Source: Octopus vulgaris | Lineage: Eukaryota | Assembly: GCA_951406725.2 (NCBI GenBank) | Contig: OX597825.1 | Coordinates: 40,734,001 to 40,798,000, forward strand | DNA: 64,000 bases | Direction of reading: 5' to 3' | In this document: in pieces, positions 1 to 58,679 of the stretch | Layout: the number at the start of each line of letters is the position of its first letter | Position numbering within the stretch: position 1 is the first letter of the stretch | Made by a program: the position numbers and the translations under genes | The notes under the pieces: generated by a model | Told to the model about the DNA's origin: nothing | The model's database searches: none | The model's input: only the letters and a program-made list of their open reading frames with translations

Positions 1-55
1 ACAGAGCTGCGCTTGGTAGTGAAGTGAAAGCACGCTATAAAAATAAAACTACTGA
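1..55 (+). mobile_element. 3' UTR end of R4/Dong-like non-LTR retrotransposon (copy 1, runs off window start)
   Basis: Nearly identical to 3' UTR ends at 877-937, 3895-3955 and 49621-49675 (ACAGAGCTGCGCTYGGTAGTGAAGTGAAAGCACGCTATAAAAATAAAACTACTGA), followed by (TAA)n. Confidence 0.9.
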
Positions 56-68
56 AAATAATAATAAT

Positions 69-122
<54 letters not shown>

Positions 123-131
123 TATAATAAT

Positions 132-937
132 AAAATCCCAGCAATGGTTGAGAAGCTCAGGACTCAAAGCATAAAACAGAGGGATTTTTAATTGCAATAA
201 TAATAAAGCCTCCCCACCAGAAATTACCAAAAACATGTAATGAAAAGAAATATTACAAGTAACTGCAGAATATGTGGAGATGGACAAGAAACAATAAATC
301 ATATTATCTCTAGCTGCCCAGTCCTGGCTAAGAAGGAATATATTCACAGACATGACAGAGTTGGAACCTACATACATTGGAAGCTATGCTAACATTATGG
401 AATAATAACAGAAAAAAGATGGTATAGGCACACACCAGAAAAGGTCACAGAAAACGAGAAAGCAACCATACTCTGGGATATGCCGATACACACAGATAGA
501 GAAATTAAGGCCAACAGACCAGATATAGTTGTCAGAGATCATGAAGAAAAAAAATGCTTTTTAATTGATGTATCAATACCGGCAGATGACAACGTGTCTC
601 TAAAAGAAATGGAGAAACTCTCAAAATACAAAGACCTGGAAATAGAGGTAACTAGAATGTGGAATCTGAAAACAGAAACAATTCCTATCATAGTAGGTGC
701 ATTAGGCATGATAAAAAAATATTCAGACAAATACATAACAAAAACACCAGGACTTACAAACACATATAACATACAGAAAATTGCACTACTAGGCACTGCC
801 CACATCCTACGCAGAACACTTCCCATACAATAACCATCAGAGCATCACAACAAATCACAGCACATACCCAAGGCACACAGAGCTGCGCTCGGTAGTGAAG
901 TGAAAGCACGCTATAAAAATAAAAATAAAACTACTGA
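132..937 (+). mobile_element. 5'-truncated R4/Dong-like retrotransposon (copy 2): zinc knuckle, restriction-like endonuclease and 3' UTR; disrupted
   Basis: Near-identical to 3149-3955. Encodes CRICGDGQETINHIISSC, RHD, NRPDIVV..IDVSIP..EKLSKYKDL. In-frame TAA at about 390. Flanked by (TAA)n on both sides. Confidence 0.92.
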
Positions 938-988
938 ATAATAATAATAATAATAATAATAATTATAATAATAATAATAATAATAATC

Positions 989-1056
<68 letters not shown>
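938..1056 (+). repeat. (TAA)n microsatellite separating Dong copies 2 and 3
   Basis: Direct reading. Confidence 0.97.
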
Positions 1057-1057
<1 letters not shown>

Positions 1058-3955
1058 TACGTTACGATCCATCAACACCAGATCATCTCTGACCTCAAAC
1101 ACCATGTACAAAAAAATTACAAATAAATTAAACAATACCGGTATTATTCAACCCAAGAATAACATTCGGGAAGTGCGCACTTTAATCTTGTTACACAACA
1201 AGTACGAAAAACTAACAACACGTGCAAAACAATGTGACAACAGAAGTGAACGGACGGGTACCATACGAAAATGACGACCGTCAAAATCAAGGGCCGGACG
1301 TTGTTCCTCATGTCCTGCAAATAAAACTAAAATGGCATAAATGGACACGTGAGGAACATATTTCAATCCTACACGCTTACTTTACAGCAGTGCTCTACCC
1401 AAAGAACGAAAACACAACATATACATATAAAATATGGAAGAAAAATAACTTAAATAAAGACTTGGACACAGTAATGAACCCTAATAAACTAGCTAACATA
1501 CGAAGATAAATTCTCAGCGCAAAAAATATCAGAAATACAAATATAATATAAGGAAAATGTAGATAGAAGCCACAAAACAATGCCAAATAATATAAACACT
1601 GAGATAGTAAAACACGAAGACAAACGTAACATTTCCAAAAAAACAACAAACCCAGACCGTAGCGATGCATAATAATGTACAAAACACCACAGACAAACAT
1701 ACGAATGAGAAAGAAAACGAAACAAATCTAAACCTGGAAACAACGAAGGGGAACATATTTATTATGATACTATAAAAACTAGAATAATCAAAGAACTGAA
1801 AAACACAGATCTTAGAATGGACCACCGACCATACCTCCCAAAAATCAAAATAGACAACAAAACAACATCAATAATAAATAGCATAAACCTGGCCGTCACG
1901 GAACTAATAGCCACTGAAACAAATAGCAATATCACTGAGCTAAATGACATAATATATGCAGCTGCCACTGCCGCCACAAAAGAAGCTGGATACTCCCTCA
2001 AACCCATCCAAACAGGAGTAACGCCACCCAAACAAACCCTGTGGATAAATAACATCCAAAAGAAAATACAAAAAATGAGAAAAGATCTGTCGATTCTTCA
2101 CGAAATCAGTAGACAATCAAACCTACTGAGCAACAAAAAGAAAACAAAAATACTGTGCAAATACAACATCACAGAAAAAGATTTACCTGAGATAAAAGAA
2201 AAGCTAAAGCTAGATATCCATGCCAAAGCCCAATGATCCGCCGGTATGAGAAACGACAACGTTTCTTTGAACAAAACAAACAGTTCAACTCCAGCCCCCA
2301 AAGGTTCTACAAATAACTTGGTAAAAATAAAATAGACATCACTGCAGCACCAACGGCAAAATAAGTGGAAGTATTCTGGAAATAAATATGGTCGGGGAAT
2401 GAACAACCACAGAAAAGGACTATTAAAACAACAAACTTTGCACCTGAGCAACTCTGGACCCCCAAAACAACTGAAGAGGTCACCCAGGCACTGCAAAGAT
2501 TAAGCAACTGGAAGGCACCTGGGCATAACAAGATCCCCAACTTCTGGGTGAAATATCTACCAGGAATGCACAAAAAGCTGGCTGAAAACTTTAACAACAT
2601 ACTGGCAGAGCCAGAGACAATGCCTAAATGGCTCACAAAGGGGAAAACCATCTTAATTCCCAAATCCAATGAGACAGAAAAACCAGAAAACTACAAACCT
2701 ATAACCTGTCTCCCTACAATGTATATAGCATTTACTGCAGCAATATCACAATATCACCCAAAATCTGACATAGAAAGACTATATATACAACTTATAGAAG
2801 GTGGTAGAGGCCTTATACAGCTGGAAAACTACTATAAAATAACCACCATAGGACTGCAAAAATATCTACTTCAGAAGGAAGGAAAACTGATCCAGATAGC
2901 GGCAAAACACGAGCAAAACAAAAAACTGTTCTCAGTATTTAAGGAAGCTGACAAATACAAACAAGAAATCATACCACCTAATAAACATGAAGAAGAAGAA
3001 GAAGAAGATGAAGAAACAACAAAAGCTATAAAAAAATGAAATACAAACTAAAAATAGAACAGCAACGAACCATGATAAAACGATGGCAAGAAAAGCCCCT
3101 TCATGGTAAATACTGGACTAAACTAAACGCAAAAGAAATAGACAAAGAAAAATCCCAGCAATGGTTGAGAAGCTCAGGACTCAAAGCAGAAACACAGGGA
3201 TTTTTAATTGCAGCACAAGACCAAAGCCTCCCCACCAGAAATTACCAAAAACATGTAATGAAAATAAATATTACAAGTAACTGCAGAATATGTGGAGATG
3301 GACAAGAAACAATAAATCATATTATCTCTAGCTGCCCAGCCCTGGCTAAGAAGGAATATATTCACAGACACGACAGAGTTGGAACTTACATACATTGGAA
3401 GCTATGCCAACATTATGGAATAACAACAGAAAAAAGATGGTATAGGCACACACCAGAAAAGGTCACAGAAAACGAGAAAGCAACCATACTCTGGGATATG
3501 CCGATACACACAGATAGAGAAATTAAGGCCAACAGACCAGATATAGTTGTCAGAGACCATGAAGAAAAAAAATGCTTTCTAATTGATGTATCAGTACCGG
3601 CAGATGACAACGTGTCTCTAAAAGAAATGGAGAAACTCTCAAAATACAAAGACCTGGAAATAGAGGTAACTAGAATGTGGAATCTGAAAACAGAAACAAT
3701 TCCTATCATAGTAGGTGCATTAGGCATGATAAAAAAATATTCAGACAAATACATAACAAAAACACCAGGACTTACAAACACATATAACATACAGAAAATT
3801 GCACTACTGGGCACTGCACACATCCTACGCAGAACACTTTCGATACAATAACCATCAGAGCATCACAACAAATCACAGCACATACCCAAGGCACACAGAG
3901 CTGCGCTCGGTAGTGAAGTGAAAGCACGCTATAAAAATAAAAATAAAACTACTGA
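1057..3955 (+). mobile_element. R4/Dong-like non-LTR retrotransposon (copy 3), long but internally deleted and frameshifted
   Basis: N-terminal KWTREEHISILHAYF..NPNKLANIRR. RT start (NWKAPGHNKIPNFWVK, WLTKGKTILIPK, NYKPITCLPTMY) fused directly to post-RT YHPKSDIERLY..GGRGL. Then WQEKPLHGKY, AAQDQSLPTRNY, CCHC knuckle and PD-(D/E)xK RLE. 3' UTR ends in (TAA)n. Confidence 0.93.
3036..3851 (+). pseudogene. C-terminal ORF fragment of Dong-like protein (zinc knuckle + RLE endonuclease)
   Basis: 271-aa open frame with CRIC..ETINHIISSC, RHD, RPDIVV, IDVSVP, EKLSKY; disconnected from upstream frame by an A-run frameshift near 3036. Confidence 0.9.
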
Positions 3956-3970
3956 ATAATAATAACAAAT

Positions 3971-4148
3971 AACATCGAAAAATACCATAAGAATGAGAAC
4001 CCAGGCTCGAAATGTATCCTGATGAAGACTGTAGGGTATATCCAGCCGAAACGTTATGTTAACAGCAAACAAGATAAAGACAAATATCCGTCAAATGTAA
4101 ATAATGTAAACAATGTCCATAATTCCTCATCTCTTAAATATAGAATTG
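3971..4148 (+). mobile_element. 3' part of PLE terminal unit (pLTR-like) with degenerate minimal hammerhead
   Basis: Aligns with reverse complement of 48060-48205 and 51545-51714 (ATCGAAAA..GAATGAGAACCCAGG..CTGATGA..CAGCCGAAACGTT..GTTAAC..AATATCCGTCAAATGTAAATAATG..AATTCCTCATCTCTT). Confidence 0.85.
4014..4060 (+). ncRNA. Type I hammerhead ribozyme motif, degenerate (stem I 5' strand damaged)
   Basis: CTGATGA 4019-4025, stem II GACTG/CAGCC with 1 mismatch, GAAA 4048-4051, palindromic AACGTT. Confidence 0.6.
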
Positions 4149-4433
4149 AATTTCCACACTTCCGTACTCCGAATTTTAAAATCAATTCATCGCATCTCCT
4201 CACCAACCTGTGTTGGAATAAAAAGTCCAAAGCGAGCATGTTGGGGTCAGATTAGTTGAAAATACACGAAAAATAATTTATTTAATGTTGTAAGCGTTCT
4301 CCTTACAAACTTACATTTTATAAGTATATATCAATAGACAAGATATGTACTTCGAGAAACAATTCCAGAAACAATTTCTGCCCATTCTCTGGAAAATTTA
4401 TGAATGCCTGTGATGTCAACAGCATACATACAT

Positions 4434-8124: not shown

Positions 8125-10430
8125 ATAACCCCAAATAATCAACTTATCTTAGAAAACACTCTCCACAACAAAAATCCTTATATTAGCTAAAGTTTTAAAT
8201 TTTACACTCACCCTACGAAGACTCAACTTCACTGAGATTAAAGATAATATTGCAGAATTCCATTAAAAAATGTTATTGACAAAAGCAGTAACCAACTACA
8301 ACAACGATGATGAATCACTGATGAAAAACAAAAGTAATTATCTACCACCCAAAGGAAGGAATAAAACACTGGACAACTTCTGTAACCGTATCGAAAATTT
8401 TCCTCCCACTCTCTAGAAACCAAAACTTGTACCTAACTTCAACAACATACAATAGAAGCACCTAAAAAACGACCAAGACCTGACAATCAAAGAAGCAGAA
8501 AAACGTAGTGCCGTAGTCCTGATGGACACAGAATACTATAAAAACCTAGCATTGTCCATACTAGAAAATGACTCCATTTCTGAAAAAGTTGCAAATTATA
8601 GGCAGCAAAAAATATTAAAAGATCTTGCATCTTTAATACTCAAACATGGAAAAGTCCTCACAGAAAAAGAGAAAGACTATATCACAAATTTTAAATGCAA
8701 ACCAAGCCTTTTCTATGGCCTCCCCAAAATCCACAAGTGTCAAATAATTACTAATGCTTGCAAATCAAATCCAAGTCTATACATAAATATCCCAACACCA
8801 GAAGACTTAAAATTAAGGCCTATTATAGTAGGCCCAGCCTGTGAAAGACACACCTACACAACTATTTGGACATACTATTGAAACCTTTCCTCAGTTAAAA
8901 GTTTCATTAGAGACGATCTGGACACGCAAGAGCACCTGCCAAAATCCACCAACGAAGAAGCACTATTAGTGTCCTTCGATGTCATCAACCTCTACACTAA
9001 CATTCCACATGACTACAGAAAAGAGGCAATAAAATTCTGGTTAGAAAAATACCCCAAAGTTCTCCCGGATCGCATAAACCAGACCTTTGTCATTGAATCC
9101 CTGAAGTTCATCCTACAAAACACTTTCTATTCGATGCAAAATACTACTGCCAAAAATGCAGTATTGCGATGAGAACGAAAGCAACGCCTGTCCTTGCGAA
9201 CCTAATAATGGGTTTCTTTGAATCTACCCTATATGAACTTTCACTCCAAAAATTTGGGTCCCCATTCCACCAGTATATAAGAGAAAACTAGAAAAGTTAC
9301 CTAGACGATTGTTTTATCATCTGGAATGAAACCTATGATAAACTCCTGGATACCAAATCCACACTAAACAATATAATCTCCAATATTCAATTTACAATGG
9401 AATATAGCAAGAAATATTAAGATTTTCTGGACCTTTTGATTATAAAAACTCCAACAGCCCAATTGAAACTGACGTCTACTACAAACTAAGAGACTCAAAA
9501 CAGTATCTCCTTTTCAGTTTATGCCATACTTAACACGCCAAAATTAAGATCCCATTCAATCTAGCTAAAAGGATCTCTGCTCACTCAAGACCTGAAAATG
9601 AACAACAGCCTAAATACACATAAACTCCTCAAATGCAAAAGACAACACAAATCACTCACAAGACCCCCAGCAAATACAAGACTATACTCAATAATACGAT
9701 ACCAACAGTTAAAAAATGAAGACGATCTAATTGTGGTGCATGCCCAGACCTGACGGAAGGCTCGGAATTCAGAAAGGAGAAAAATTCTCAATTATGACCA
9801 ACTTCACATGTGCTTCCCAGAACTTTATCTATGTCTTAACCTGCTCAGGTTGTGGCCACAATTATGTGGAGTAAACGAGCCTTACTTTGAGACGCAGAGT
9901 CACGCTGCATAAAGAACAGATCCGTTTTCCTCAATACAGGCAGATAGCCCTGAGCGAATATATCGTCAGATGCGCAAGATATAAAACGCTAAATTTTCAT
10001 ATCTTTCCATTATAACAATGCAAACATTCAATCTCTTTACAAGAACGCCTAAACAAGGAAAGCCTGTTCATACAAAAATACAGACCACACCTTAATATTC
10101 TAACTTAAACATTTCAAAAATTATACTGAATAGTTAGTTGTCCTCCCCTGTTACCTCCCTTGGTCCACTCTATAGACTCATTCTTATTTTTGAAGAATCC
10201 AAAATGGCGAGACTCTATTGTCACAAGAATTGATTACTTCACAATGTCCCTAGAAATGCTAAGTTATATAGCGAAAACCGGTTAGATATCATGACATCCA
10301 TAACATATGAATATATTTTTCTAAACATTTCTTTATAAAAAGATATTAAACTATGTGAAGCGAAGGCATTTTTCTCCCACTTTTATACATCTTCCACATA
10401 TTTTCAACTCATAATTTTGCACGTGGTGTA
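8125..10430 (+). mobile_element. Decayed Penelope-like element 1 (RT + C-terminal GIY-YIG, then pLTR)
   Basis: Fragments across stops and frameshifts: IKEAEKRSAVVLMDTEYY, FYGLPKIHK, LRPII, SFDVINLYTNIPH, ATPVLANLIMGFFE, YLDDCFIIW, IQFTMEYS, TDVYYK, IPFNLAKRI. GIY-YIG: FTCASQNFIYVLTCSGCGHNYV..LRRRVTLH. ORF ends at about 10108. Confidence 0.9.
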
Positions 10431-10577: not shown

Positions 10578-10632
10578 ATTAACAAAGGAGAGAATGTATT
10601 TCCACGCAGGAAAAGATATCGGCAATTTTGCT

Positions 10633-13370
10633 GTTGAAAATTCACGTAAATTTGGAAAACTTGTAATTGTTTTTAAATAAGTTTATTTGCATATATACCA
10701 TACAATTTCATCAATAAATTTTTTGTTTCTCAATGGTAAAAATTTAGAATTATGAATTAGGAAAACATGTTTAAATGTTTCAATATTAACAAGTTTAAAA
10801 GTTCATAACAATCAATGATATAAAAACTGTAGATCAGCTTGTTTAAATGCACAAAGTTCAATAGGGTTATTAGTGATCGACAAGAAATGAATATCATGAA
10901 AGTTTCAGTCTTACCGAGTTAACAGGGAGAAAACAAGGGAGATATGAAGAAAAGAAAATAGGGGTTGTTTTGCAATTTCTGTGATTCTCTTTCCGTCGTG
11001 TGCACCGAACATTCGCTTGTAATGCCGTTTGTTGGAATCCGGTGTAATTATAAATTTTTCTGTGAACGGATCTGATTTTTGATCCGTTAAAGTGCTGGTG
11101 AGGTCTTGCTTTTCTGGTGGTCAAGTTTGTCGTTCATTTTGGTTGGCTTCCAGCTGGTTGAATTTCTCAAAAGATCATTTTCTTTTATTTGCTGAAATTC
11201 GATTTTTATCGGAGGTAAAATTTCCTGGGTCTAGAGTTAGGTGACGTCAGCAACTGGTGTTTGTATGTTATTATTGTATTGTAATTTGGAGTTGTGGTTT
11301 CACAGGCCGGGTTGAAAACTGTTACTAAAGTTTCTAAAATTGTCTGTTGTATCTGGTTGTTGTTTTATGGAGAGGTTTCTCGTTCTCCTCTTTAGTGTTT
11401 TTTCTTGTTTCTAAAAGATATTCAGCTGTGCTTTATATTTTTTAATGAATTTGTTTCCCTTATTTAATCTGAATTCTATTCTCCTCCTGCTACTCAAAGC
11501 ATATTAAAATAAATATACCGTTCAAGTTAGCAAGAAGAATTTGCACGATTGCATCAAATCCTGAAACCCGAGAAAAGCGACTCCAAGAACTTAAAAGCAT
11601 ATTATTAGATAGAAAATATCCGGCCAGTCTATTCAAAAAAGGAACAGAACTTGCAAAAATGATAGACCTCCGAGAGTTACAGAATACAAAAAATACCATG
11701 ACACACTTAAAACTTTATCTTACGTATCAACACACAATCTGCGGAACATGGAAGCATACAATATCATTCGCCGCTAAGTCGGCGAGCTGGCAGAAACGTT
11801 AGTGTGCCGGGCGAAATGCTTAGCGGTATTTCGTTTGTCGTTACGTTCTGAGTTCAAATTCCACCGAGGTCGACTTTGCCTTTCATCCTCTCGGGGTCGA
11901 TAAATAAAGTACCAGTTTCACTGGGGTCAATGTAATTGACTTAATCCCTGTGGCTGTCCTTCTTTGTCCCCTCTATTTTTAGCCCCCTGTGGGTAGTAAA
12001 GAAATAAATATCATTCACCAAAACATGCCCCTGAAGGACCTGCGAATGAAACAGGTCTTGGAAACACATAAGATAATTAAAAGCAAGAAGCAGCCGCAAT
12101 CCCTTAAAATTTACTCAACAGCGCCAAATTACCCACCAAAAATGCAACCCACTAGTCAAAAAGTGCAACCGCACAACTGCGGGACTTGCATCTTCCCCTT
12201 AGAGGGCTCAACATACAAATTTACGTCAGGTCAAACTTTTACCATAAAAATTACTTCATCTATGCTTCGAAGAGCTTAATCTATGTTCTCAAATGTGGAG
12301 GGTGTGGTGGAGACTACATAGGTTAAACTAGTTCAACCTTGATGGACAGACTAACAGCGCACAGACAACAGATCCAGGACCCCATGACCAGAAAAATTCC
12401 CGGAAGCAAACAATTAGACCAATGCCCTGCAAACATAAACCCGAAATGCCAAATCTTCCCTCTCTATCAATGCACTGGAAACAATTCAACACAATTTGGT
12501 TTAAATAAAGAAATGTTATGCATTAAAAAATATATACCAATGCTTAATATCCTTTAGAAAGAAGATAAAACACTAAAGAGAAAAGGAGAAAGACTCAAAT
12601 TCTCCACAACAAAAACAGCCACATGCAACAGACAATTAAAAATCTTTAGTAACAGTCTTCAACCCGGGTTTCGAAACCGCAGCTCCACATCACCAAACAG
12701 CAACACCATACAAGCACCAGTTGCTGACACCACCTAATTCTGGGCCAATGAAATTTTACCTCCGATCAAAACCGAATGTCAGCAAATACAACAAAATGAC
12801 CCTGTGAGAAAATCAACCAACTGGAACGGCTGATGACTGTTCCCCACAGGGAAATCAACCAAGCAGAACCACAAACTTGACCACCAGAAAAAGAAGACGT
12901 CACCAGTACTTTAACAGATCAAAAATCAGATCAACTCGCGGAAAAAATTATAAAGACACTGGATTCCAATAAACGGCGTTACAAGTGAAAGTTACTGTAC
13001 ACGATATAAAGATAATCACAGAAACTGTAAACCAAAGCCGTCTTTTTACTATCTTCATTTCTCCCTTGTTTTTTTCCCTCTTAACTCGGTATGACTGAAA
13101 CTTTCATGATATTCATTTCTTGTCGATCACTACTAACACTATTGAATTTTGTGCATTTAAACAAGATGATCTACAGTTTTTATATTATTGATTGTTATGA
13201 ACTTTTAAACTTGTCAACATTGAAACATTTAAACATGTTTTTCTAATTCATAATTCTAAATTTTTACCATTGAGAAACAAAAAAATTATTGATGAAATTG
13301 TATGGTATATATGTAAATAAACTTACTTAAAAACAATTACAAGTTTTCCAAATTTACGTGCACTTTCAAC
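10633..13370 (+). mobile_element. Penelope-like element 2: inverted pLTR (10633-11480), 5'-truncated thumb/GIY-YIG body (11490-12557), pLTR (12558-13370)
   Basis: 10633-11480 is the reverse complement of about 12490-13370. Body encodes KINIPFKLARRICTIASNPETREKRLQELK..RKYP, CGTC, LIYVLKCGGCGGDYIG*T..DRLTAHRQQI. Confidence 0.9.
11770..12006 (+). mobile_element. tRNA-derived SINE (Meta-like domain) inserted in PLE 2, with 10-bp TSD
   Basis: A box TGGCAGAAACG, B box GAGTTCAAATTC, GCCTTTCATCCTCTCGGGGTCGATAAATAAAGTACCAG. TSD AATATCATTC at 11760-11769 and 12007-12016. Confidence 0.9.
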
Positions 13371-13559
13371 AAACTAGAGAGAGAGAGAAAGTTAGTCGTC
13401 TGTGCGCCGTATCTACACCTTTTTGTCTTCAGCAAGATATTTTCTCCGTAACAAAATACACTGAAAAGCTTTCTTACGGGTTCGAATAGCCCTCACGTAT
13501 ATTTGAACTGTTAACAAGTTCTTATATAGGGAGAGAGTGACGGAAGAGATGCACAACTG

Positions 13560-32912: not shown

Positions 32913-35142
32913 TATAATCAAACATAATCAACAAGAATGACTCCGTAATTTGGTACAATTGTTTAGCACTACAACATTTTATTAAAAGTTGTAAGTATTA
33001 CACCAGATTTAAGATGCTGAGTGCTCTTTACCCAATTATATATGTTTTCCAATAATATAAAAGCTTTCAAGTCAAGTAGTAACATTTCAGAGAAGGTAGA
33101 TATACAGATAAAGATGTAGATTTAAATTTTAAGAACATATGAGGTTGTGAAGTTCAGTCGCTAACTGACCAAAACTATGGTTGTATCTGACTGCTATAAG
33201 AATTTTTAGTTGTATGAATGAGGGTAAAGTAGGTTCCAGAATACCATAAAAGGAATTCAAGTTAGTTGTAGGAATGAGGGTAAAGGAGGTTACAGAATAC
33301 CATAAAGGAATTCAAGTTGCCACTAACAAAAAGCCAATTACTGCTATGTGGTGAGAAGAAACTAGGTCATTGTCAAAAGGTCATTAATTTCTTTTACAGA
33401 GAGTAGGGAAAAAAACTATCACTTACTTTTAGTAGGCATAGTATTTTATAACTGGAGGAACAGCTTTAAAACTTTAAAACTAGATTAGATTTAGGAAAAG
33501 TTCCAATTTCAAGATTACAGTGAACTTTTTCTAGTCATCTATGAAAGTTAAGTTGAAGGCTAGTATAGTATATTTCTTATTAACTAAATTATTATAATAA
33601 AATGTTAAAATTTGAACTAGATATAGGAATAATGGCGTAGATTAAAACTGCGAATTTTAACCAATCAGAGCATGTGTAAAACTTGACTGCATTCTATTAG
33701 TGTGACGTAGAAAGCCTTTTGTGACGTACTAACGTTCGGAAACTAGATAAAAAATATTTTATTTTTAAAAATGAGAGAATAAATAATACTTTTTTGAACA
33801 TAATTTTTATTACCGTACAGTTACGAAGTATCTGCATAGAAGTTGGGATTCATAAAAGCTCTCGGCGGGCCGCATGAAAACCTATGGTGGGCCGCATGCG
33901 GCCCGCGGGCCGTAGTTTGCCCACCCCTGGTCTAGGGGAAGCATTGATGTACATGTGTGTGTGTGTGTGTGTGTTTGATGGGGTGTGGGAGACAGTATGT
34001 TGTGTAAGTGAAGTGCTTCTGTTAGTGTGTGTGAAGAGACAGAGAGAGTAATGTGTGAAAGAGAGAGATAACTGAAATGTTTTACTCGGTGTATGTGTAT
34101 ATTTATGTCTGCATGTATGTGTGTGTGTGTATGTATCTATGTATGTATGGCCAATTCATCGTAATTACGATTACGATGAATCGGCTATACATACATACAC
34201 ACACACACATACATACACACACACACATACTTACACATACATACACACACACATACATGCAGACATACAGAATGGAAACGTTTTCAATTTAATACATGTG
34301 GCTTATTAACTAGTTTTAAATATTGTTATTAGAAGGTGGCTGACTTGTTTACATTTAAGATGTTAAATACGTCACGAAATTGGTGGTCGAGACGGAGTAA
34401 ATAAAATAAAGCCGAATGACGGAATATCATTGGTTAAAATTCTAATTATTAAACAACGTTAAACTTAGAAGTTACAATTCCGTTTTCATTCTGGTTTACA
34501 ATTAAGTTTACTTTTGACACATTCTACCAGTATACGAAGTTTCAAATTGTTTGGTTCAGTAGGAAAAATTTGAAAAAACTGGCCTCAAAATAGAAAAGAT
34601 CCATGAAGTTTTTCTAGTCATCTATGAAAGTTAAGTTGAAGGCTAGTATAGTATATTTCTTCTTATTATTATAATAAAAAGTTAAAATTTGAAAAATATA
34701 TAAATAATGGCGGTGCCCCAGCATGGCCACAGCTTGTGAGCTGAAACTAGATAAAAATATTTAAAAAAGGAATAAATAATACTCATAATTTTTATTTAAA
34801 GTATTTAAACGTTCGAGTTATGGAATGTATGCAAGATAATTCATACAACTAAAAAATTATTATAGCAGTCAGATACAACCATAGTTTTGGTCAGTTAGCG
34901 ACTGAACTTCACAACCACATATGTTCTTAAATTTAAATCTATATCTTTATCTGTATCTCTACTTTCTCTAAAATGTTACTACTTGATTTGAAAGCTTTTA
35001 TATTATTGGAAAACCTATATAATTGGGTTGAAGAGCACTCAGCATCTTAAATCTGGTGTAATACTTACAACTTTTAATAAAATGTTGTAGTGCTAAACAA
35101 TTGTACCAAATTACGGAGTCATTCTTGTTGCTTATTTTTGAT

Positions 35143-35146
<4 letters not shown>
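32913..35146. repeat. Long inverted repeat: about 307-bp arms (32913-33219 / 34839-35146) around a 1.6-kb spacer
   Basis: Arms are closely matching reverse complements by eye; the spacer holds direct repeats 33522-33790 / 34604-34783. Confidence 0.9.
33855..33929 (-). mobile_element. hAT (Charlie-like) transposon terminus
   Basis: Reverse complement CAGGGGTGGGCAAACTACGGCCCGCGGGCCGCATGCGGCCC, with GGCCCG subterminal motifs; adjacent GTCTAGGG resembles the NTCTAGAN target. Confidence 0.8.
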
Positions 35147-37200: not shown

Positions 37201-37262
37201 AGTTAGTTACCTTATTTACATTATTTACAGCTGACGGATATTACCACACAGCCACTACTGTG

Positions 37263-37302
<40 letters not shown>

Positions 37303-38228
37303 CAGCTGTAAATAATGTAAATAAGGTATATATATATATATTTCAAGTTTGTTTATGGTAACATAAATAAAACTTCTATTTCTTTATGATGTCCACCGTC
37401 TAATGATGCTGATTAGAGAACCAATGTTTCTGGGTTGCATCATGTTATACCGACATAATGTAGAATAAATATACACAAAATTGCTGCACCGTGTAACATA
37501 AAATCACGTGTATGTAGCCCATGCCTAGAAGATACCTTGTAAATAATCACATACTGGGAAAACGTGATAAATAAGCACACTCAGATGGTCATATGTGAGC
37601 GTAGGAACAAAACATTCATGGATTTTGAAAAAATATTTTGAATCAAAATGACACATTATAGTGAGGAACCCAAACAAATAAATACACCAACCGATATTTG
37701 AGATGCTAAACACTATACTAACAAAAACAATGAATGGGTCACCATAAGAAAGGAACATTTATCAGTTCAGTCAACACACCCAACTGTATAGCAGCAGTAC
37801 TTGACCACCTGTTGAGTTCTGAATTTCTGGAAGATATTCATGCCTGAAATGAAATCAAACAAAAGATTTTACAACCTATCCTTAACATTTGCTAAATGAA
37901 TAACAAAATAAATATCCGACACCATCTCACACACTCCCATCCCCATGTAACTACCATTTCTTCTATTCCCATAAACTTCTACTCCTTCCATACAGATATG
38001 CTCACATAACGCGTTTCACTTTATACTGGTAAAAAGAGAAAAACATCCGTCTGTGGTTCATCCACTCAGGTTATTTCACCTGAAAAATGAATAAATGATG
38101 ATGTTCAACCGCATGCCCTCGCATACTATCGACTACACTGTAATAATCCCAGGAATATGGACTGTGACCATAAAATTTATGTGGAATGTAGAAACGCGTA
38201 GCGATGCATTAAATGCATATAAATTCCA

Positions 38229-45637: not shown

Positions 45638-48059
45638 CATACATATATACATAAATGCAAATATATATGTATACATATACATATATATATTTATATATAT
45701 ATATTGTAAAAGTATATATAATCTCTAATGTCTGTATTGAGTGCATTTTCCATCATTAATGTGTACAAGAATTTCCATATATGCGTATGTGTTTGTGTCT
45801 GTGTTTGCATACAAGTGAGTATGTGTCTATGTACATATATACAAATATACTTATATATGTATCTGACTATTATATGATTTACTGCAAGTAACGTTATTCA
45901 TATTCAATTTGTGCTTTGGAGAAAATAGAAAACTAATTTGGTTTTGAATCTTGAAGCTTTTCAAGAGACACACAATCTGTCTGTTTTCTCTGCACAAGTT
46001 GGAAATAAAGCAGTGCCACTCTGTCTGGGATGATAACTAAATATCATTTGTAATGTTTATATTGAAGAGTTCAATACCTAAAGGTCCTAATATTTCTCTC
46101 CATGAAAAGTTCGATGCGACGAAAGGATAACAATTGTATTTCAAGTTGTTGAAATGAAACAAAAGATTGCATCTACAAATAAATAAAGAAAGAAAGAAAG
46201 AAGTAGATGAAATAAAAATATATTTATTGTTTTATTTTTGGTGAAAGCTGAATAATTTCTGTTTATTTTTCTCTTTCTTCTTTCTATTAATTCTTATGGT
46301 TCAGTGCATGCGTGGATCAATAGAACATTGTGTAAACTTACAGAGCGCTAAAAGCTTGGCACCAATCATAAGGCCTTCTGGGAGAAAGAAGATGGCTTCC
46401 TAAAATGTGAATCAGAAAATAATACATAAGAAGGATGCTAGAATTAATGAGGTAACAAGGGACATAATTATCAATGTAGAAATTTTGTATCTTAATAAAA
46501 TTTTCATCAAATGATGGTGTCAATACAAAAGCATTTTTAATTATTTTTTTACGTCGGTAGTTAAGAAAGAGACAAATTTATCAGTATGAATATATTACTT
46601 TAAACTATTTTAGTGTGGTGAGGAGATAGATAAAACTGTTGAAACGGAGTGGGATATCTAAGAAAATACAATTGCAACTAATAAAAGTGACAAATGAAAT
46701 ACAGGAAATCAACAGACATGCTGAAATAGTGAGAGAAATAAATTTACTGTAGGTACACAAACTAACTAGAGTGGCTCGATAAAACATAATATCTCGTAAT
46801 GATTGGCATTGTGTTTTTCTTTTTTTCATTTGCTTGCCTTTGATTGCAAAAGGGGATGCTAACCTCCACACGGAAGGTCTTTCATTTTATATCCTGAAGT
46901 ATTAAGATACGAAAATCAAATCTCATTTTCAAACAGGATTAGTATCCCAACAAGTACCCTATAATATTTTAGGACTTAACAGATATTTAGCGACATGTAT
47001 ATTTTAAAACTTTTTCTTGTGAATTTTTAATCAAAAGTATTCGAACACGACACCAACTCAGAGATCATCGGAAATATATTTTGCTTCGTGATTTTCTCCA
47101 TACCTCCTATCTTGTTTGCGTCACAAACAAGATAAGATAGCAGTTTCATCAACATAAATCCAGTATAATATAAATCAGAGATTAGTACTTTCTTGGAATC
47201 CAGATTCATAAATTTTCTCCAATGTGAGAGGCTGCTTTCAGCCTGGTAATTCAATTAGTAACTGATGAGTATTAATCTATTGTTCTTTTTAACTAAATAG
47301 GGTTCTAACTTCAAAAACATGTTTCTTAATCTGGTAACAAACATGCCTCTTTTATATACCACCATAACTATTGAATAATACAGAGATCCACATTAGTGGA
47401 AGCCCATCTATTGGCAACAATATCTTACCCTTCCTCTCACATATGTCTAAGCTAGTGTAGCATACAAGTAGAAAATATTTGCTAATTATACCCACGGGCC
47501 TCAAGCAGCCTATGTCTGTAAATCAATATGTTATACATTTTCATACCTATACTTTCTATAACAGTAATAAGAGTAAAACGAAAAGCAACCTGACATAATC
47601 GAAGAAGGATTATAAAAATTTCCTCTATCATCAAAACGCTAGAAACTTTCAAGATTGCAACATACACTTGTGTGTGTTGCATGTCTACATGTGTTCTTGT
47701 CTCCTAATGCATAGCAGAGCATTATGGTACCATACTTAGAGAATCTTTAACAACGTCCAAGAATTCTCTCAAAAACCACTGCTCCAGTTTCTTGATTTCC
47801 AAAAACAATGTTCCAAAAGTCAAACCCACTTGATTTCCAGTTAATTTTAGAGCCAATTTTCGCCCTACACATTTATATCATGTGTCTTTCCATTATTACC
47901 TACTCCAGCATTTTAGTGAATTATGACATATTTTATCTCGAGAAGAGTGGTGATTTTCAGTGGTGAATTTGTCATTGCAAACTATCAGCACCAATTCCTG
48001 TATAGCGACATCATGAACAGCTGCGAAAAATAAATTATCTGAATTACATACCAATAATT

Positions 48060-48204
48060 ATATTATTTACATTTGACGGATATCTGTCCTCAACTTTTTT
48101 CTTGTTAACACAACATTTCGGCTGATATGCCCTCCAGCCTTCATCAGGTGTCTTGGGGAAATTTCGAGCCTGGGTTCTCATTCCTAAGGTATTTTCCTTT
48201 TCGA

Positions 48205-48236
<32 letters not shown>

Positions 48237-49160
48237 TCAGTGTCTGGAATTGAACTCGGAATCTTCACTACACCATATGCCAGTGGGAAATTATGGAGAG
48301 AATTTTAGGGCTTATAAATCTAATATTTTCCTATATTTCCTTAATACCGGTTCCGATATGCTACTTGTATCTGCAATCGGTCTGCCTATGAGGTGGTTGT
48401 GTTCTAGCATATGTGCTGCTTCTTTTAGTTTTCGTATTTTCCAGTGGTGTTCTCTGTCTATTATTTTAACTTCATCCCACAGGGGAAGGTGGTCTCTATT
48501 TTTCCATACATGATCAACTATACTCGATTTATCAATATCTCCTCATGTCACAGCTTTGCGATGTTCATGTACCCTTATTTTGAGGGGGCGGCATGTTTCG
48601 CCTTTGTATAACCTACCACAGCTGCATGGGATGGAGTACACGCAGTCTTTGGTCATATTCTCTTGTATTGGTGGTTTTACTCGAAGGAGATATTTGCAAA
48701 GTGTTGGAGTAATCTTGAATACTGTCCTGATATAATATGGGCCGCATATCTTTTGTATCTCTTCGGACAGGCGTTTCACATAGGGCAGACAGACTGTGGA
48801 CAGTTTATTGGTTTCATCCTCTCTTTCCTTCATAATTGGAGCGGATATTATTATTTTGGGGGTAGTTGTTGCTTAATAGATCATTATTGAGCTTGATCAT
48901 TTCTTCGTGGAGTGTATCACGATCGCTACCTATATTCTTTGCTCGATGTTTTAGGCACTGAGCAATCCCTCCCTTTACACTGAATGGATGATGGGAATTG
49001 AAGTTGAGGTATCGTCCAGTGAAGGTCGGCTTGCAGTGTACGGATGTCCTGAATCCATACTTGGTGCTTGTTATTAATACGTCCGGGATTGCTATCTGAT
49101 TGTCTTTTACCTTTTCCATTGTGAACTGTATGGTTGGATTTATTGAGTTCACATGATCTA
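48060..49160 (-). mobile_element. 5'-truncated Penelope-like element 3: RT end, GIY-YIG, then terminal unit (tRNA-like head, (TAA)n, HHR)
   Basis: LDHVNSINPTIQFTME..DVLI..TSVHCKPTFTGRYLNFNSHHP, CLPYVKRLSE, CVYSIPCSCGRLYKGETCRPLKIRVHEH, RKLKEAAHM; stop at about 48312. Confidence 0.93.
48107..48152 (-). ncRNA. Minimal type I hammerhead ribozyme in PLE 3 terminal unit
   Basis: GACAC-CTGATGA-A-GGCTG gagggcatat CAGCC-GAAA-TG-TT-GTGTT: stem I GACAC/GTGTT, 5-bp stem II, loop-less stem III. Confidence 0.8.
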
Positions 49161-49198
49161 ACAACAACAACAACAACAACAACAACAGCAATAACAAC

Positions 49199-49271
<73 letters not shown>

Positions 49272-49675
49272 TTGTCAGAGATCATGAAGAAAAAAAAATG
49301 CTTTCTAATTGATGTATCAATACCGGCAGATGACAACGTGTCTCTAAAAGAAATGGAGAAACTCTCAAAATACAAAGACCTGGAAATAGAGGTAACTAGA
49401 ATGTGGAACCTGAAAACAGAAACAATTCCTATCATAGTAGGTGCATTAGGCATGATAAAAAAATATTCAGACAAATACATAACAAAAACACCAGGACTTA
49501 CAAACACATATAACATACAGAAAATTGCACTACTAGGCACTGCACACATCCTACGCAGAACACTTTCCATACAATAACCCTCAGAGCATCACAACAAATC
49601 ACAGCACATACCCAAGGCACACAGAGCTGCGCTCGGTAGTGAAGTGAAAGCACGCTATAAAAATAGAACTACTGA
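49272..49675 (+). mobile_element. 5'-truncated R4/Dong-like copy 4 in (AAC)n/(TAA)n
   Basis: Near-identical to 529-937 and 3548-3955; (TAA)n on both sides. Confidence 0.93.
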
Positions 49676-51632
49676 ATAATAATAATAATAGTAACAACAA
49701 CAACAACAGCAAAATAAATTCTCCTGACATCAGTAACGCATTCCACTCCGTATGGCGCACGAATACTGGCAAAATTGTGTGTTTTTGGTGTCCATGTATT
49801 TTTTATCAACTATATTTAAACCTTTATGTCAAACGTTTCCATCGTAAGGCACCTCGACCGGTTTCACGGTATATGTATCCCCTCTATTCAATAGATCAAG
49901 AGGCAGATTATGTTTTGAGGGGGAGTTTGATTCCTTTTTCAGGCCGAAACTGTGTAGAGGCCTTCACATTTACTCCTTTTTCGTGTTTTTATCATTTTTT
50001 AGTTCCATTTCAACTTTGATGAGGAAAATCTATGATCAAAAGGCATTTGGTTTTGACTATTCATCCATTATAATAAGATTTTAAATCTTGTATCAAAACA
50101 CGCAATGTGTAGTTTTATTTTAAATAGTAGTTTGTGAACTGAAGAAGAATTAACTTCTGTTTGTATCAAGTCGAATGACTAGATAGAAGCTCCTTCATTT
50201 CATGATAGAACGGTTTCGAAGGTGTTAATAATAATGAGAAGGGGGAATGTGGTACTTGCTTGTAATTTGCTGTTTAGATAAGCTCCTACACTTGCAAATA
50301 GCAGAATATGCACAGAAAGATAAAGGGTTTGTTTAGCATGAGAACATCTCGTTACACCGATGTAGGCAGACCAATTTATATTAATGTCATTTAGCATCTC
50401 TGTAAACTAACGAAATGTGTGGTCTTTATGGAAATTTCATGCAATAAAGCACTATCTAAGCTTTAAAAGTAATTCTCATTTTGTTATCCATCTCTCCATT
50501 TTCATTTTATGGATCAATGTGTTTCTTTAGGAACACATTTTCTAATTCCCTTGTTCATATGTTATTTCACTGATCGATTTGAACAACAAAAACGTGTCAT
50601 AAAATTAAATCCATTACTTCGATTTACACGTAAAAGAAATTATTTAGCAGGAGGACGAATACAATAGGGAAAGTTAAACAAAGGAATCCTGACAATCAAA
50701 ATAGAATGTGTGTTAATAAATTCGTGCCCAGGAAGTCTATAGGCAACATTGGGCAGGGTACGATGATACAGTTTCTCTTTCTCCAGCCTAGATTAATGGC
50801 AAAGTTTAAGACCATCTGTGTAAGCTAATAAAATATGTATCAATGTTATTATAGTTAGTTGACAAATATAACAGTTTGGATTCTAAGGGATCTATAGTTA
50901 TGATTGACAGAATCGGCCTCGTCATATACTGTCTTATGCTGATCTACCCGAGGAGTATGTTAAGGTAAATGTACATGTTTGTGAAATCATTAGCTACTAG
51001 CACCTTATTTCAAGCTGTATACAACTCACCTGAACAAACAGGGGAAATACTCGTTGAACTTGATAGGATCTCCATTTCATTAGATTAGCTACCAGTAGAG
51101 CATCTTAATAAATACCTAGAATATTTCGTTCTCATTCTTCAGCTTCTGGCTTCAAATTCCGTCATGATTAACGATCTCATTCATTTTTCTACGGATTATG
51201 TAAGCAACACTAGTAATATGTAATTGTTAATATAATTGTCATAGCTTGTCCCTAGAAAGCAGTTACATCAAAAGAAATGCATGTTAATATAGTGAATGGC
51301 TGTTATTTTTCATTTAGCTTCTGGTCAGTTTTCCTGGAACAGACCTAAAGTCAAAGATATTCCAGCTCTTATCAACCAATCTTTTTTGTATATCTATGTA
51401 TATCAATGTAACAATTATTTTGGGTACGATTAAGTAGGCATTGGGAAGGTGAGACTGCTGCTTCTACCAAGTTGTGCTATGACATAGAATCATTTTTGAG
51501 AACTAGAAGACATTACACTCACATACTGACTAGACTAATTGACACAGTTCTATATTCAAGAGATGAGGAATTATTTACATTATTTACATTATTTACAATT
51601 GACGGATATTTGTCCTCATCTTGTTTGTTGTT

Positions 51633-51677
51633 AACACAATGTTTCTGCTATATAACCTCCAGCCTTCATCAGGTGTC
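51633..51677 (-). ncRNA. Minimal type I hammerhead motif, partly decayed
   Basis: GACAC-CTGATGA-AGGCTGGAGGTTATATAGCA-GAAA-CA-TT-GTGTT. Confidence 0.65.
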
Positions 51678-51722
51678 TTGGGAAAGTTTCAAACCTAGGT
51701 TCTCCTTTTTCGATGTTGCTGT

Positions 51723-51755
<33 letters not shown>

Positions 51756-51778
51756 TCTTGTTGTTGCTCTTGTTGTTG

Positions 51779-51960
<182 letters not shown>

Positions 51961-52925
51961 GGCATAGTAATGAGAACCCAGGTCCGAAATTTCCCCAAGA
52001 CAACTGATGAAGCCGAAACGTTGTGTTAACAACAAACAAGATGAGAACAAATACCTCTCAATTATAAATAATATTTCGTTCTCATGGATGTATAGTGTTT
52101 TTGACTGGATAAAACCTCCAGTCATTAATACCTAATTTAGAACCCTATCAACTCAAGCAGCTTATAATATTATTATAAACTTCAACTAAAACAACAAGAC
52201 CACAATGCCCAGTCAAATATGTTGGGATATTTTGTTTAGATACAGGAGTTAGGTAGGTGAAGAAGCGTATTGTTATTATGAATCTTTGTGTTCAGTTTAT
52301 TTTTGAAATGAACAAATGTTCAATATAAAAAAAAAATTTCTTTTGTTTGTCTGAAAAGAACCGCGTGATCTTCAGGGAATAATGAATACAAAGTAAGATT
52401 ATCATTATACAATTTGCATATGTTTAAATATACTTCTTTAAAGAATATCTTTAAACTGTATTTCACTGTTTTAGAACAGCAGCCTGAGTTCATTTTTTAT
52501 TCGATTATATATCGTTGCGCTTTTTCTGTCACTTCTATTCTGTAAATTTATTAAAATGGATATAGTTTAGAAATATATTTCGATCGTGAAATTCTAAAGA
52601 TGTTTGTTTAATCTTAGAATGAAATTAAGTTCTTTTTCTTTCTTTTTTTAAACAAAATAATGGAATTTATATTGTTATGCGGTATACAAATTGGGGCCTT
52701 CAATATTCTTAAAAATTAATGTTTACTCTCCTCGTTTTCGTTACTTCCACGTGGAGATCCTAATATCCCCTAATTTGAATGCAAGAACTGTGCTAACTAC
52801 AAAATCTTCGAGCTATTTTACAGTCATTCGCATAACAAGGGAAAATGTCAATTTACGGCAAAGTGACGTAGTGTTAGCAATGTAACTTTTTGTACTGGAT
52901 ATTTGACATTCACACTGGTATTGTA

Positions 52926-57331: not shown

Positions 57332-57595
57332 GTATGTATATATATATATATATATAATTTTAAAACAGGATAAAATCTTCATGAGAATTTATCAAGTAGT
57401 TAGCGTGAACAACCTCATAAGAGAAAAAATACATCAATCTTTTCATTTAAATATATTTATATGTTATATAGAAGGCATTATTACACATAAATGCCACATG
57501 CTAGGAGGGACTCTTAAAGTCAAAACTACTAGAATAAATAAACATATCGTACCGAAACCAACTCTCAAAGCAAGTCATTTAAACACAGAATTCAA

Positions 57596-57659
57596 CTGCA
57601 TATCACAATGTGATTTCGTAATCAGTGCAGTGGTATACACTCTTTACTCCTCAGTGCAG
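57596..57659 (-). ncRNA. Type I hammerhead ribozyme, intact core
   Basis: CTGCA-CTGAGGA-GTAA agagtgtataccactgcactga TTAC-GAAA-TCACA T TGTGA-TA-TGCAG. Confidence 0.88.
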
Positions 57660-58088
57660 GCATAATTCAAGATTTATAATGAAGGAACGAAAACAACATA
57701 CCAGGCGAACAACTATCGTATCCAACGCCGCATGTAGAAATGTTCACCCCTTATACGCCTATGTAAATGGTGGGCTTTTACGAATTGCATTTCGATAACC
57801 ACGTGCTTATTCGGAATAAAAATTCAGTATTGAATATACCCAGATTAAATTTACAATTTAAAAATAGGATGAAATCTCCATAAGAATTTGTCAAGTAGTT
57901 AGCGGGACAAACCTCATAAGAGAAAAAATACATCAATTTTTTCACTTAAATATATTTATATATTTATAGAGGGCATTATTACACATAAATGTCACACGCT
58001 AGGAGGGACTCTACATGCTACATTGGATACGATAGTTGTTCGCCTGGTATGTTGTTTTTGATCACTCATTATTAATCTTGAATTATGC

Positions 58089-58152
58089 TTGCACTGAGGA
58101 GTAAAGAGTGTATACCACTGCACTGATTACGAAATCGCAGTGTGATATGCAA
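58089..58152 (+). ncRNA. Type I hammerhead ribozyme, intact core
   Basis: TTGCA-CTGAGGA-GTAA agagtgtataccactgcactga TTAC-GAAA-TCGCA G TGTGA-TA-TGCAA. Confidence 0.88.
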
Positions 58153-58335
58153 CTGATATGCAGAGAGTTGGTTTCGGTACGATATGTTTATTTATTTTAG
58201 TAGTTTTGTCTTTAAGAATCCCTCCTAGCGTGTGGCATTTATGTGTAATAATGCCATTATATATATATTTATAATAGAAATATTAAAATTACTAAGTCTC
58301 TCTAAAGGAGATTACGGCAGCGTTACTGGATATTA

Positions 58336-58679
<344 letters not shown>

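Follow-up and report, generated by a model that had tools for sequence, protein, structure and literature searches.

Elements of the Dong type are already known to target TAA repeats (PMC3812793), and an HDV-like ribozyme has been described at the Dong 5' end (PMC3774820). Among the recently active LINE groups of Octopus vulgaris, Dong-R4 is the largest, with 5 families and 1129 insertions (PMC13282606). N-terminal zinc fingers differ in number between the clades to which such elements are assigned (PMC5678591). Stacking of transposable elements through repeated insertion at a target that is kept has also been published (10.1101/158386), and several Penelope-like clades show an insertion bias towards microsatellites (PMC8557442). 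For Dong itself, no description of arrays was found in the literature covered, which included few subscription papers.

We analysed a 64,000-nucleotide stretch of O. vulgaris DNA, here called the window, which begins with three broken Dong/R4-type copies, arranged head-to-tail in a TAA microsatellite next to a Penelope-type repeat of greater age. The copies were probably inserted separately, the element taking any (TAA)n tract as its target. The first-pass annotation had placed copies 1–3 head-to-tail with (TAA)n between them, and this layout (1–55, 134–937 and 1058–3955) was borne out:

1 to 55, + strand: Dong-type copy 1, cut by the window edge so that the final 55 nt of its 3' UTR are left; these match the 3' ends of copies 2–4.
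57 to 133, + strand: (TAA)n tract of ~25 units, spacer between copies 1 and 2 (TRF).
134 to 937, + strand: Dong-type copy 2, 5'-truncated, with zinc knuckle, RLE endonuclease region and 3' UTR; 97% identical to copy 3, tblastn match to residues 1017–1224 of the relative P0001.
938 to 1057, + strand: (TAA)n tract of ~40 units with two interruptions, spacer between copies 2 and 3 (TRF and sequence).
1058 to 3955, + strand: Dong-type copy 3, dead, of almost full length (three full-length relatives aligned by tblastn; Pfam zf-RVT, E 5.5e-7).
3956 to 3973, + strand: short tail of three TAA units, then the leftover end of the tract of the Penelope-type unit (sequence; in public contigs, TAA/CAA runs at 3968–3971 come before the unit copies).
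49160 to 49271, + strand: (AAC)n(AAT)n tract at the 5' break of a Penelope-like ORF; distinct from the unit tracts, being on the opposite strand and having neither a head nor a following unit (TRF and sequence).
49272 to 49675, + strand: Dong-type copy 4, 5'-truncated, then (TAA)5 and (AAC)n; 96% identical to copies 2 and 3.

The TRF figure of 48 copies at 913–1057 takes in A-rich UTR, and the tract proper is 938–1057.

The elements had been called Dong/R4-like and inserted in TAA, and domain order, RT0 motifs judged by eye and TAA on both sides all agree with this. Copy 3 is collinear with relatives of ~1220 amino acids in which a single ORF runs from RT through a CCHC knuckle to a restriction-like endonuclease. 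By tblastn it spans nearly the whole protein, with ~309 reverse transcriptase residues missing at 2751/2752 and with stops and frameshifts; its C-terminal frame (3015–3848) is intact and holds the CCHC knuckle and a PD..D..K motif in a motif scan. All Dong-type copies in the window are dead. The relative P0001 matches R2 structures (E 3e-31). Dong and other elements of the R4 clade are not known to have N-terminal zinc fingers, only a Myb-like motif. None of the 42 full-length relatives has an N-terminal C2H2/CCHC pattern, and 36 of them carry a KW(S/T)xxE motif, which copy 3 shares (near 1340). Judged visually, the RT0 motifs follow those that the supplement of PMC5678591 shows for Dong and R4, and depart from those in its R2, R8, R9 and HERO rows. 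With its gap restored by length, copy 3 measures ~3.8 kb against a mean of 4.2 kb (computed from the table in PMC13282606), and may be slightly truncated at its 5' end. Rfam gave no match for an HDV-like ribozyme at that end, where 1050–1200 folds weakly; copy 3 may lack its own 5' end. No viral relatives of the Dong alignment were found.

Copies 1–3 end in one common 3' UTR followed by TAA units. Including copy 4, which the first-pass annotation had omitted and which occupies a non-unit tract, TAA is found at the 3' end of all four copies and before all three visible 5' ends. The copies lie ~1% from each other's majority, with 3, 4 and 2 private substitutions in copies 2, 3 and 4 over 381 columns. 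In the alignment these copies have three different 5' ends, and near its 5' end copy 2 has a short ATAATAAT patch in place of 10 nt of copy 3. A rival account has the array grow in place instead of by separate insertions, whether by duplication at the site, by unequal exchange of TAA tracts or in one round of template jumping. An A-rich 3' UTR longer by 6 nt is common to copies 2 and 3 and absent from copies 1 and 4, as expected from duplication, although a shared subfamily would give the same, and two private columns of copy 4 could instead be changes common to copies 2 and 3. However, an alignment of copies 2 and 3 shows 19 differences in 804 columns, 13 of them beyond the 5' junction patch, and these two are no closer to each other than either is to copy 4. 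Copy 1 carries a private change along with the short UTR, and the 5' ends differ. We regard an origin in place as highly improbable.

Contigs from four public runs were compared with 3780–4420 only. Among those listed, locus-specific contigs begin at 4122–4124 and none spans a Dong-unit or Dong-Dong junction, as would be seen if the stack were an assembly artefact made by joining reads across TAA tracts. Each copy, however, has its own substitutions and 5' end and each tract its own interruptions, the flank 4122–4420 occurs once in each of the four runs with 0–3 differences, and the same layout is seen in relatives. An artefact is thus scarcely credible.

Beyond the short tail, the sequence had been described as continuing with the segment that follows (TAA)n further along the window, in matching orientation. 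The alignments agree, placing it with the unit after (TAA)n at 48205 and 51725: 3938–4148 aligns to 51751–51545 (76% over 221 nt, E 3e-39) and 3955–4109 to 48223–48058 (79% over 168 nt, E 8e-34). The end point given earlier, 4148, is the true 3' edge of the unit, since matches of contigs from the four runs stop at 4145–4152. The Penelope-type features are as follows:

3974 to 4148, + strand: Penelope-type terminal unit, old copy of 175 nt; core CTGATGA..GAAA at 4019–4051, where a deletion has removed 8 nt from the 5' strand of helix I.
48041 to 48204, − strand: terminal unit closing a Penelope-like element on its 3' side, with the best preserved of the hammerhead cores (48147–48116).
48205 to 48285, − strand: remnant of a tRNA-like head (B box kept, A box to part of the anticodon deleted), then ~9 TAA units; no Dong.
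48330 to 49158, − strand: Penelope-like ORF, 5'-truncated, with RT end, HTH and GIY-YIG-type endonuclease; 61–64% identical to P0241 (E 5e-96).
51545 to 51960, − strand: free-standing element of head (51960–51892), ~55 TAA/CAA units (51891–51725) and unit (51724–51545); no Dong.
51961 to 52075, + strand: inverted partial unit abutting the head at its 5' end, helix II deleted; resembles inverted Penelope insertions.

The ORF at 49158–48330 matches residues 301–578 of P0241, a protein in which Pfam finds an RT. Pfam gave no GIY-YIG match in the window pieces; Atlas grouped P0241 residues 400–582 with GIY-YIG clusters (score 0.97), the family being on 19–24% of their members. The order of RT followed by a C-terminal GIY-YIG endonuclease is that of a Penelope-like element (EN+). 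Against prokaryotes, the Penelope protein returned one weak, unrelated match only. All four unit copies hold a putative minimal type I hammerhead core. The copy at 48147 folds with both helix I and helix II; the array copy has a broken helix I, half of which is lost, and in the inverted copy helix II has been deleted. Rfam returned no hammerhead for the unit, and on the window only microRNA noise driven by microsatellites, with no tRNA and no hammerhead.

Both other unit copies that keep a tract have a head directly before it. The unit under the array may itself have been head-less, with no B box plus TGACCTGA before the first tract, so that a Penelope-type piece and Dong used the same TAA run. 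The Penelope-like copy does break, at 49158, on an (AAC)/(AAT) run that Dong also used, and a bias towards microsatellites is reported for several Penelope-like clades (PMC8557442). Besides the heads of the other copies, the letters at the tail junction, which are those of a normal tract-to-unit join, argue against this version. It is possible but not likely, and would change the anatomy and not the Dong mechanism.

The array copy of the unit has 8 private changes in 109 columns and is ~7% diverged, against ~1% for the Dong copies, so the unit was likely inserted before Dong. With some seven times the divergence of the Dong copies, and with half of helix I gone, this unit copy did not move together with Dong. 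In our preferred reading, separate insertion into any (TAA)n tract, the unit would be a passive landing site. The RLE endonuclease would nick the TTA strand, and the UAA tail of the RNA would prime reverse transcription at the nick, often giving a new copy truncated at its 5' end. With TAA remaining on either side, the target would be preserved, and indeed doubled, for further copies to land in. That each insertion keeps the TAA target, so that arrays can grow, had been proposed before and is supported.

Relatives from other animals show the same behaviour. The comparison set comprised 80 related loci from other hosts, whose relatives are 32–59% identical, which leaves room for a preference peculiar to the octopus genome. 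Counting non-redundant 3' ends with enough flank, and defining a TAA tail as (TAA)4+ within 260 nt of the stop, we found tails at 30 of 48 related ends vs. 71 of 1069 background windows; the 18 ends with no such tail count against our reading. Another copy is reached within 150 nt by 4 of 29 TAA tails, directly after the tail in L032 and L038 and after 137 and 76 nt in L039 and L046. Neighbours in these stacks are only ~30–55% alike in protein, and were therefore inserted separately. No hammerhead unit follows the TAA tails of the relatives, and no Penelope protein match was found in the 80 loci. Elsewhere, 15 of these loci hold 26 hammerhead cores. A loose hammerhead-like match 73 nt after the tail in L038 was rejected, as it has no helix II.

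A stronger version of events was the linked parasite system of PLE, tRNA cassette and Dong put forward in the first-pass annotation: Dong would favour the TAA tract inside the Penelope unit, or be coupled to it, for instance because chromatin there is open or because polymerase III reads on from the head. Three of the four Dong copies in the window do lie in the unit's tract, a point against our reading, and the window's only array is there. Both families are very abundant in the four public runs, where summed contig depth is not copy number and serves only as 'far above flank'. Two features of the head also favour coupling: it is intact at 51959, with A and B boxes expected by chance 0.06 times per window, and it shares with the Dong tails a CTGA before (ATA)n, all five window matches of that 12-mer being these ends. 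However, relatives stack with no unit present, copy 4 occupies a tract that belongs to no unit, Dong is absent from two unit tracts (including one of 55 units), and the unit under the array is old and has a broken ribozyme. The linked system is not supported, and we judge coupling improbable.

A weaker claim, that the unit spreads ready-made Dong sites, stands in part. Contigs of the four runs show that the unit family carries the TAA tract throughout, and three of the five long TAA tracts in the window are the unit's, so this abundant unit likely supplies many Dong targets. There was no sign that Dong favours this unit, depends on it or moves with it. Dong occupies one of three unit tracts vs. 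one of two other tracts in the window, counts too small for a test of enrichment. The stack is most likely the ordinary product of a known TAA-targeting family. It is nevertheless a clean example of array building by site-specific elements, with the same stacks common in relatives, and if most of the genome's long TAA tracts come from the unit, the number of targets open to one transposon family would be set by another.

The tRNA-headed, Penelope-tailed unit is a better lead than the Dong stack. The related locus L078 holds a similar head with boxes, 77% identical to the one at 51959 over 64 nt. Neither ARAGORN nor Rfam called a tRNA on the head, and ARAGORN found nothing in the window or the 80 related loci. 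Copies of tRNA-derived SINEs are dispersed, start at the head, are produced by polymerase III and have their tail in common with the element that mobilises them. The window holds one copy starting at the head (51960–51545), with a tail common to the Penelope-like element. Exact DNA patterns of Dong tail, unit and head had no match in metagenome, prokaryote and viral collections. We found no description of a tRNA-headed, Penelope-dependent SINE in the literature, again with few subscription papers covered and with Repbase and Dfam outside the scope; the unit may already be catalogued there. If Penelope machinery does carry a Pol III-headed element, this would be a type of SINE partner for which no description was found. 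Speculatively, such a SINE, with tRNA head and hammerhead tail, could be the origin of a large part of the genome's long TAA tracts, and in this way have fuelled the recent Dong expansion; since head-TAA cassette and Dong both end in CTGA(ATA)n, the cassette might even be a Dong-mobilised SINE captured by a Penelope 3' end. We consider this doubtful. If true, it would close a loop among Penelope, tRNA cassette and Dong.

Among described systems, Bombyx mori Dong, DongAg, DongBg and the octopus Dong-R4 families share with the array a single ORF with RT, CCHC and RLE, and TAA flanks; unlike in those families, the copies here are all dead. The tRNA-derived SINEs of octopus include OK, OR1 and OR2. 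Their tRNA-type promoter boxes are also a feature of the window head, a likeness by description and not by compared sequences. Penelope/Poseidon-type elements have the order RT-HTH-GIY-YIG, the CUGAUGA/GAAA core, helices I and II and the position of the palindromic helix III as here (PMC4209133, PMC8557442), and an inverted partial copy on the 5' side is common to both. The window differs from them in having a tRNA-like head and TAA tract between stop codon and ribozyme, and in that its head-tract-unit piece also stands alone, SINE-like. Non-autonomous Penelope derivatives, the animal retrozymes, are non-coding, pLTR-derived and hammerhead-bearing like the window unit, but in the available part of their description they are tandem repeats with no tRNA head, whereas the window unit has one (10.64898/2026.07.22.740005). 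The array itself resembles the tandem dimers of R1 and jockey described by McGurk and Barbash, which are likewise head-to-tail, with the target kept at the junction and differing 5' truncations (10.1101/158386). In contrast to those tandems, the target here is a microsatellite, so that tail and target duplication look alike.

Three copies of the stacked retrotransposon lie at the start of the window, spaced by TAA tracts, and a fourth, absent from the first-pass annotation, stands apart from them.

Dong copies and intervening tracts in the window
1-55: Dong copy 1, part of the 3' UTR (window edge inside the copy)
between copies 1 and 2: TAA tract, ~25 units
134-937: Dong copy 2, 5'-truncated
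between copies 2 and 3: TAA tract, ~40 units
1058-3955: Dong copy 3, near full-length
49272-49675: Dong copy 4, between (AAC)n(AAT)n and (TAA)5(AAC)n

In an alignment, copy 3 is collinear with single-ORF proteins of ~1220 residues, with ~309 RT residues absent at 2751/2752 and several frameshifts and stops. It is followed by three TAA units and a 175-nt unit, a Penelope-type terminal repeat that matches the minus strand at 48223-48058 (79%) and 51751-51545 (76%), where a TAA tract precedes it too. The earlier observation of an array that runs on into this unit is confirmed: the copies are TAA-spaced, the unit adjoins the last tail, and its other copies likewise come after TAA. Just 3-5 TAA units lie 3' of the last Dong copy at either locus (3956-3966 and 49676-49690), versus 23-40 preceding each Dong 5' end. 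This asymmetry would be expected if Dong inserted close to the tract's 3' end or if the tract grew afterwards. At 190-206, close to the 5' junction of copy 2, a ATAATAAT patch stands where the element would have 10 other nt, and three further changes lie nearby; repair or template switching may have left this scar.

C-terminal to its RT, the stacked element encodes both a CCHC knuckle and a PD..D..K endonuclease motif. Its relatives (protein sets of 210 and 341) match R2 structures from the RT onward only, and none of 42 full-length relatives has an N-terminal zinc finger pattern. In Octopus vulgaris no recently active LINE group is larger than Dong-R4 (PMC13282606), and octopus Dong is also reported in PMC9115989 and PMC8967140. 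Read by eye, the RT0 stretch shares its motifs with the Dong and R4 rows of the PMC5678591 alignment supplement, and lacks those of the R2, R8, R9 and HERO rows shown there. The Dong/R4 assignment is based on motifs and target.

We compared the window with 80 relative loci from metagenome contigs (32-59% identical; the best 80 of 447 confirmed), which contain 66 3' ends of the element. The second of each of four redundant pairs was removed, as were ends flanked by <260 nt, leaving 48; 30 of these carry (TAA)4+ no more than 260 nt past the stop, against a background, tails included, of 71/1069 windows. Four of the 29 TAA tails with >=200 nt beyond them reach another copy within 150 nt.

TAA-spaced stacks of different subfamilies in other hosts
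L032, 1987-2040
L038, 2665-6032 (tract, copy, tract, copy, tail, as in the window)
L039, 1040-1194
L046, 640-1963

Tails in these four stacks often open with TGA units before TAA. Stack neighbours share only ~30-55% protein likeness and are thus separate insertions. A Penelope protein match was found in 0/80 relative loci, and none of the 26 hammerhead cores (in 15 loci) follows a TAA tail; a single loose hammerhead hit after a tail was rejected on reading. Since relatives form TAA-spaced stacks without the unit, stacking in TAA is a general habit of this family.

RLE elements encode a protein that nicks the target and copies its own RNA from the nick. For Dong, the UAA tail of the RNA would prime copying at the nicked target, reverse copying is proposed to stop early often, and TAA would lie on both sides after insertion, so that each insertion would leave more target than before. 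For the array, nicking, priming and the order of the insertions are inferred. Copies 2 and 3 differ at 19/804 columns, six of them in the 5' junction patch, and their 5' ends are not the same, as expected of separate insertions; against this, a longer A-rich UTR is common to copies 2 and 3 and absent in copies 1 and 4.

The unit is likely older than the Dong copies stacked on it. Over 381 columns, copies 2, 3 and 4 carry 3, 4 and 2 private substitutions, and the three unit copies 8, 6 and 8 over 109 columns; the majority sequence of sequencing run X1 differs from the window at >=1 position within the Dong stretch and >=6 within the unit. Beneath the array, the unit copy is also missing 8 nt that make up one helix I strand. 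By the time Dong arrived, this unit had likely been dead for long, and the array was therefore probably not carried in by Penelope. The suggested three-way system linking Penelope unit, tRNA cassette and Dong is accordingly not borne out, given the older, damaged unit and the relatives that stack without one.

Contigs of four runs from four organisms (4/24 listed runs) were compared with window 3780-4420. Dong tail and unit are both plainly high-copy in the four runs, at a summed contig depth (which is no copy number) of 10^5 to 10^6 on each, versus 5-35 on the flank. Contig matches stop at 4145-4152, which fixes the unit edge there, and the loose contig ends ahead of 3968-3971 consist of TAA and CAA repeats in 4/4 runs, so the tract belongs to the unit family. 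The flank is present in all four with 0-3 differences over ~260-300 nt, and none of the contig pieces listed for these runs crosses the Dong-unit junction.

Penelope-like element, free-standing element and shared 12-mer
49158-48330, minus: Penelope-like ORF, 3' part, 61-64% to the relative protein P0241
51960-51545: tRNA-like head, tract and unit standing alone, with an inverted partial unit 5' of the head
934, 3952, 49672 (+): CTGAATAATAAT in three Dong tails
48235, 51894 (-): CTGAATAATAAT in both heads

P0241 has an RT by Pfam and a GIY-YIG neighbourhood; the sole named relative among six is an Octopus sinensis protein (74%), which points to a likely octopus host. A partly deleted tRNA-like head, nine TAA units and the unit lie 3' of the stop codon of the Penelope-like ORF. 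All 4/4 unit copies have the CTGATGA..GAAA hammerhead core, and in the copy at 48147 helices I and II fold, as in the minimal Penelope hammerheads described in PMC4209133. The break in the Penelope-like copy falls exactly at the (AAC)/(AAT) run in which Dong copy 4 also sits (49158-49710); the two are oppositely oriented and meet at the microsatellite without a unit.

The free-standing head carries A and B boxes (chance expectation 0.06 per window), although ARAGORN and Rfam made no tRNA call for it, and its tract is TAA/CAA (51545-52075 including the inverted partial unit that adjoins the head on its 5' side). The arrangement resembles a SINE that ends in a Penelope tail, and we regard it as a candidate Penelope-dependent SINE and a more novel object than the array. 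CTGAATAATAAT has these five window matches only, and Dong tails and heads have a common CTGA end before (ATA)n. SINE and LINE tails usually share far more than three or four letters; here only three or four are shared beyond the tract, so this lead, noticed post hoc, is weak. A boxed tRNA-like head at 77% to the window's over 64 nt occurs in another host (L078, 1365-1427). No description of a tRNA-headed, Penelope-tailed SINE was found in the literature, the 1994 octopus SINE paper, Repbase and Dfam being outside its scope, nor in the available parts of PMC8557442, PMC7229834, PMC5786205, PMC4758252 and 10.64898/2026.07.22.740005.

Other repeats also occur. A second Penelope-like element, degraded and from a different family, lies at 8300-10330 (+; 24-35% to P0241), with what may be a worn hammerhead core around 10250-10285. 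Inverted repeats of ~850 nt (82%; 10632-13371) flank frames at 11473-12557 that read, by eye, as the end of a third Penelope-like element, with its HTH and endonuclease. Pairs of ~300-nt inverted repeats at 32913-35146 (95%; no long coding frame seen) and 57347-58580 (84%) are likely non-autonomous DNA transposons. At 37213-37328 the unit 3' tip flanks a (TA)n run on both sides in inverted arrangement.

The unit had been proposed as a source of Dong targets. It does hold three of the five places with >=8 pure TAA units in the window. Dong occupies one of these three and one of the two others, counts too small for an enrichment test, and this occupancy equals the chance expectation. The earlier interpretation is partly supported: what stands of it is that most long targets in this window come from the unit. 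TAA targeting by Dong is known from silkworm, mosquito and a snail (PMC3812793), and 10.1101/158386 concludes that tandems with unlike 5' truncations arise when elements insert repeatedly at a site that is kept. The array adds one more example of this known behaviour.
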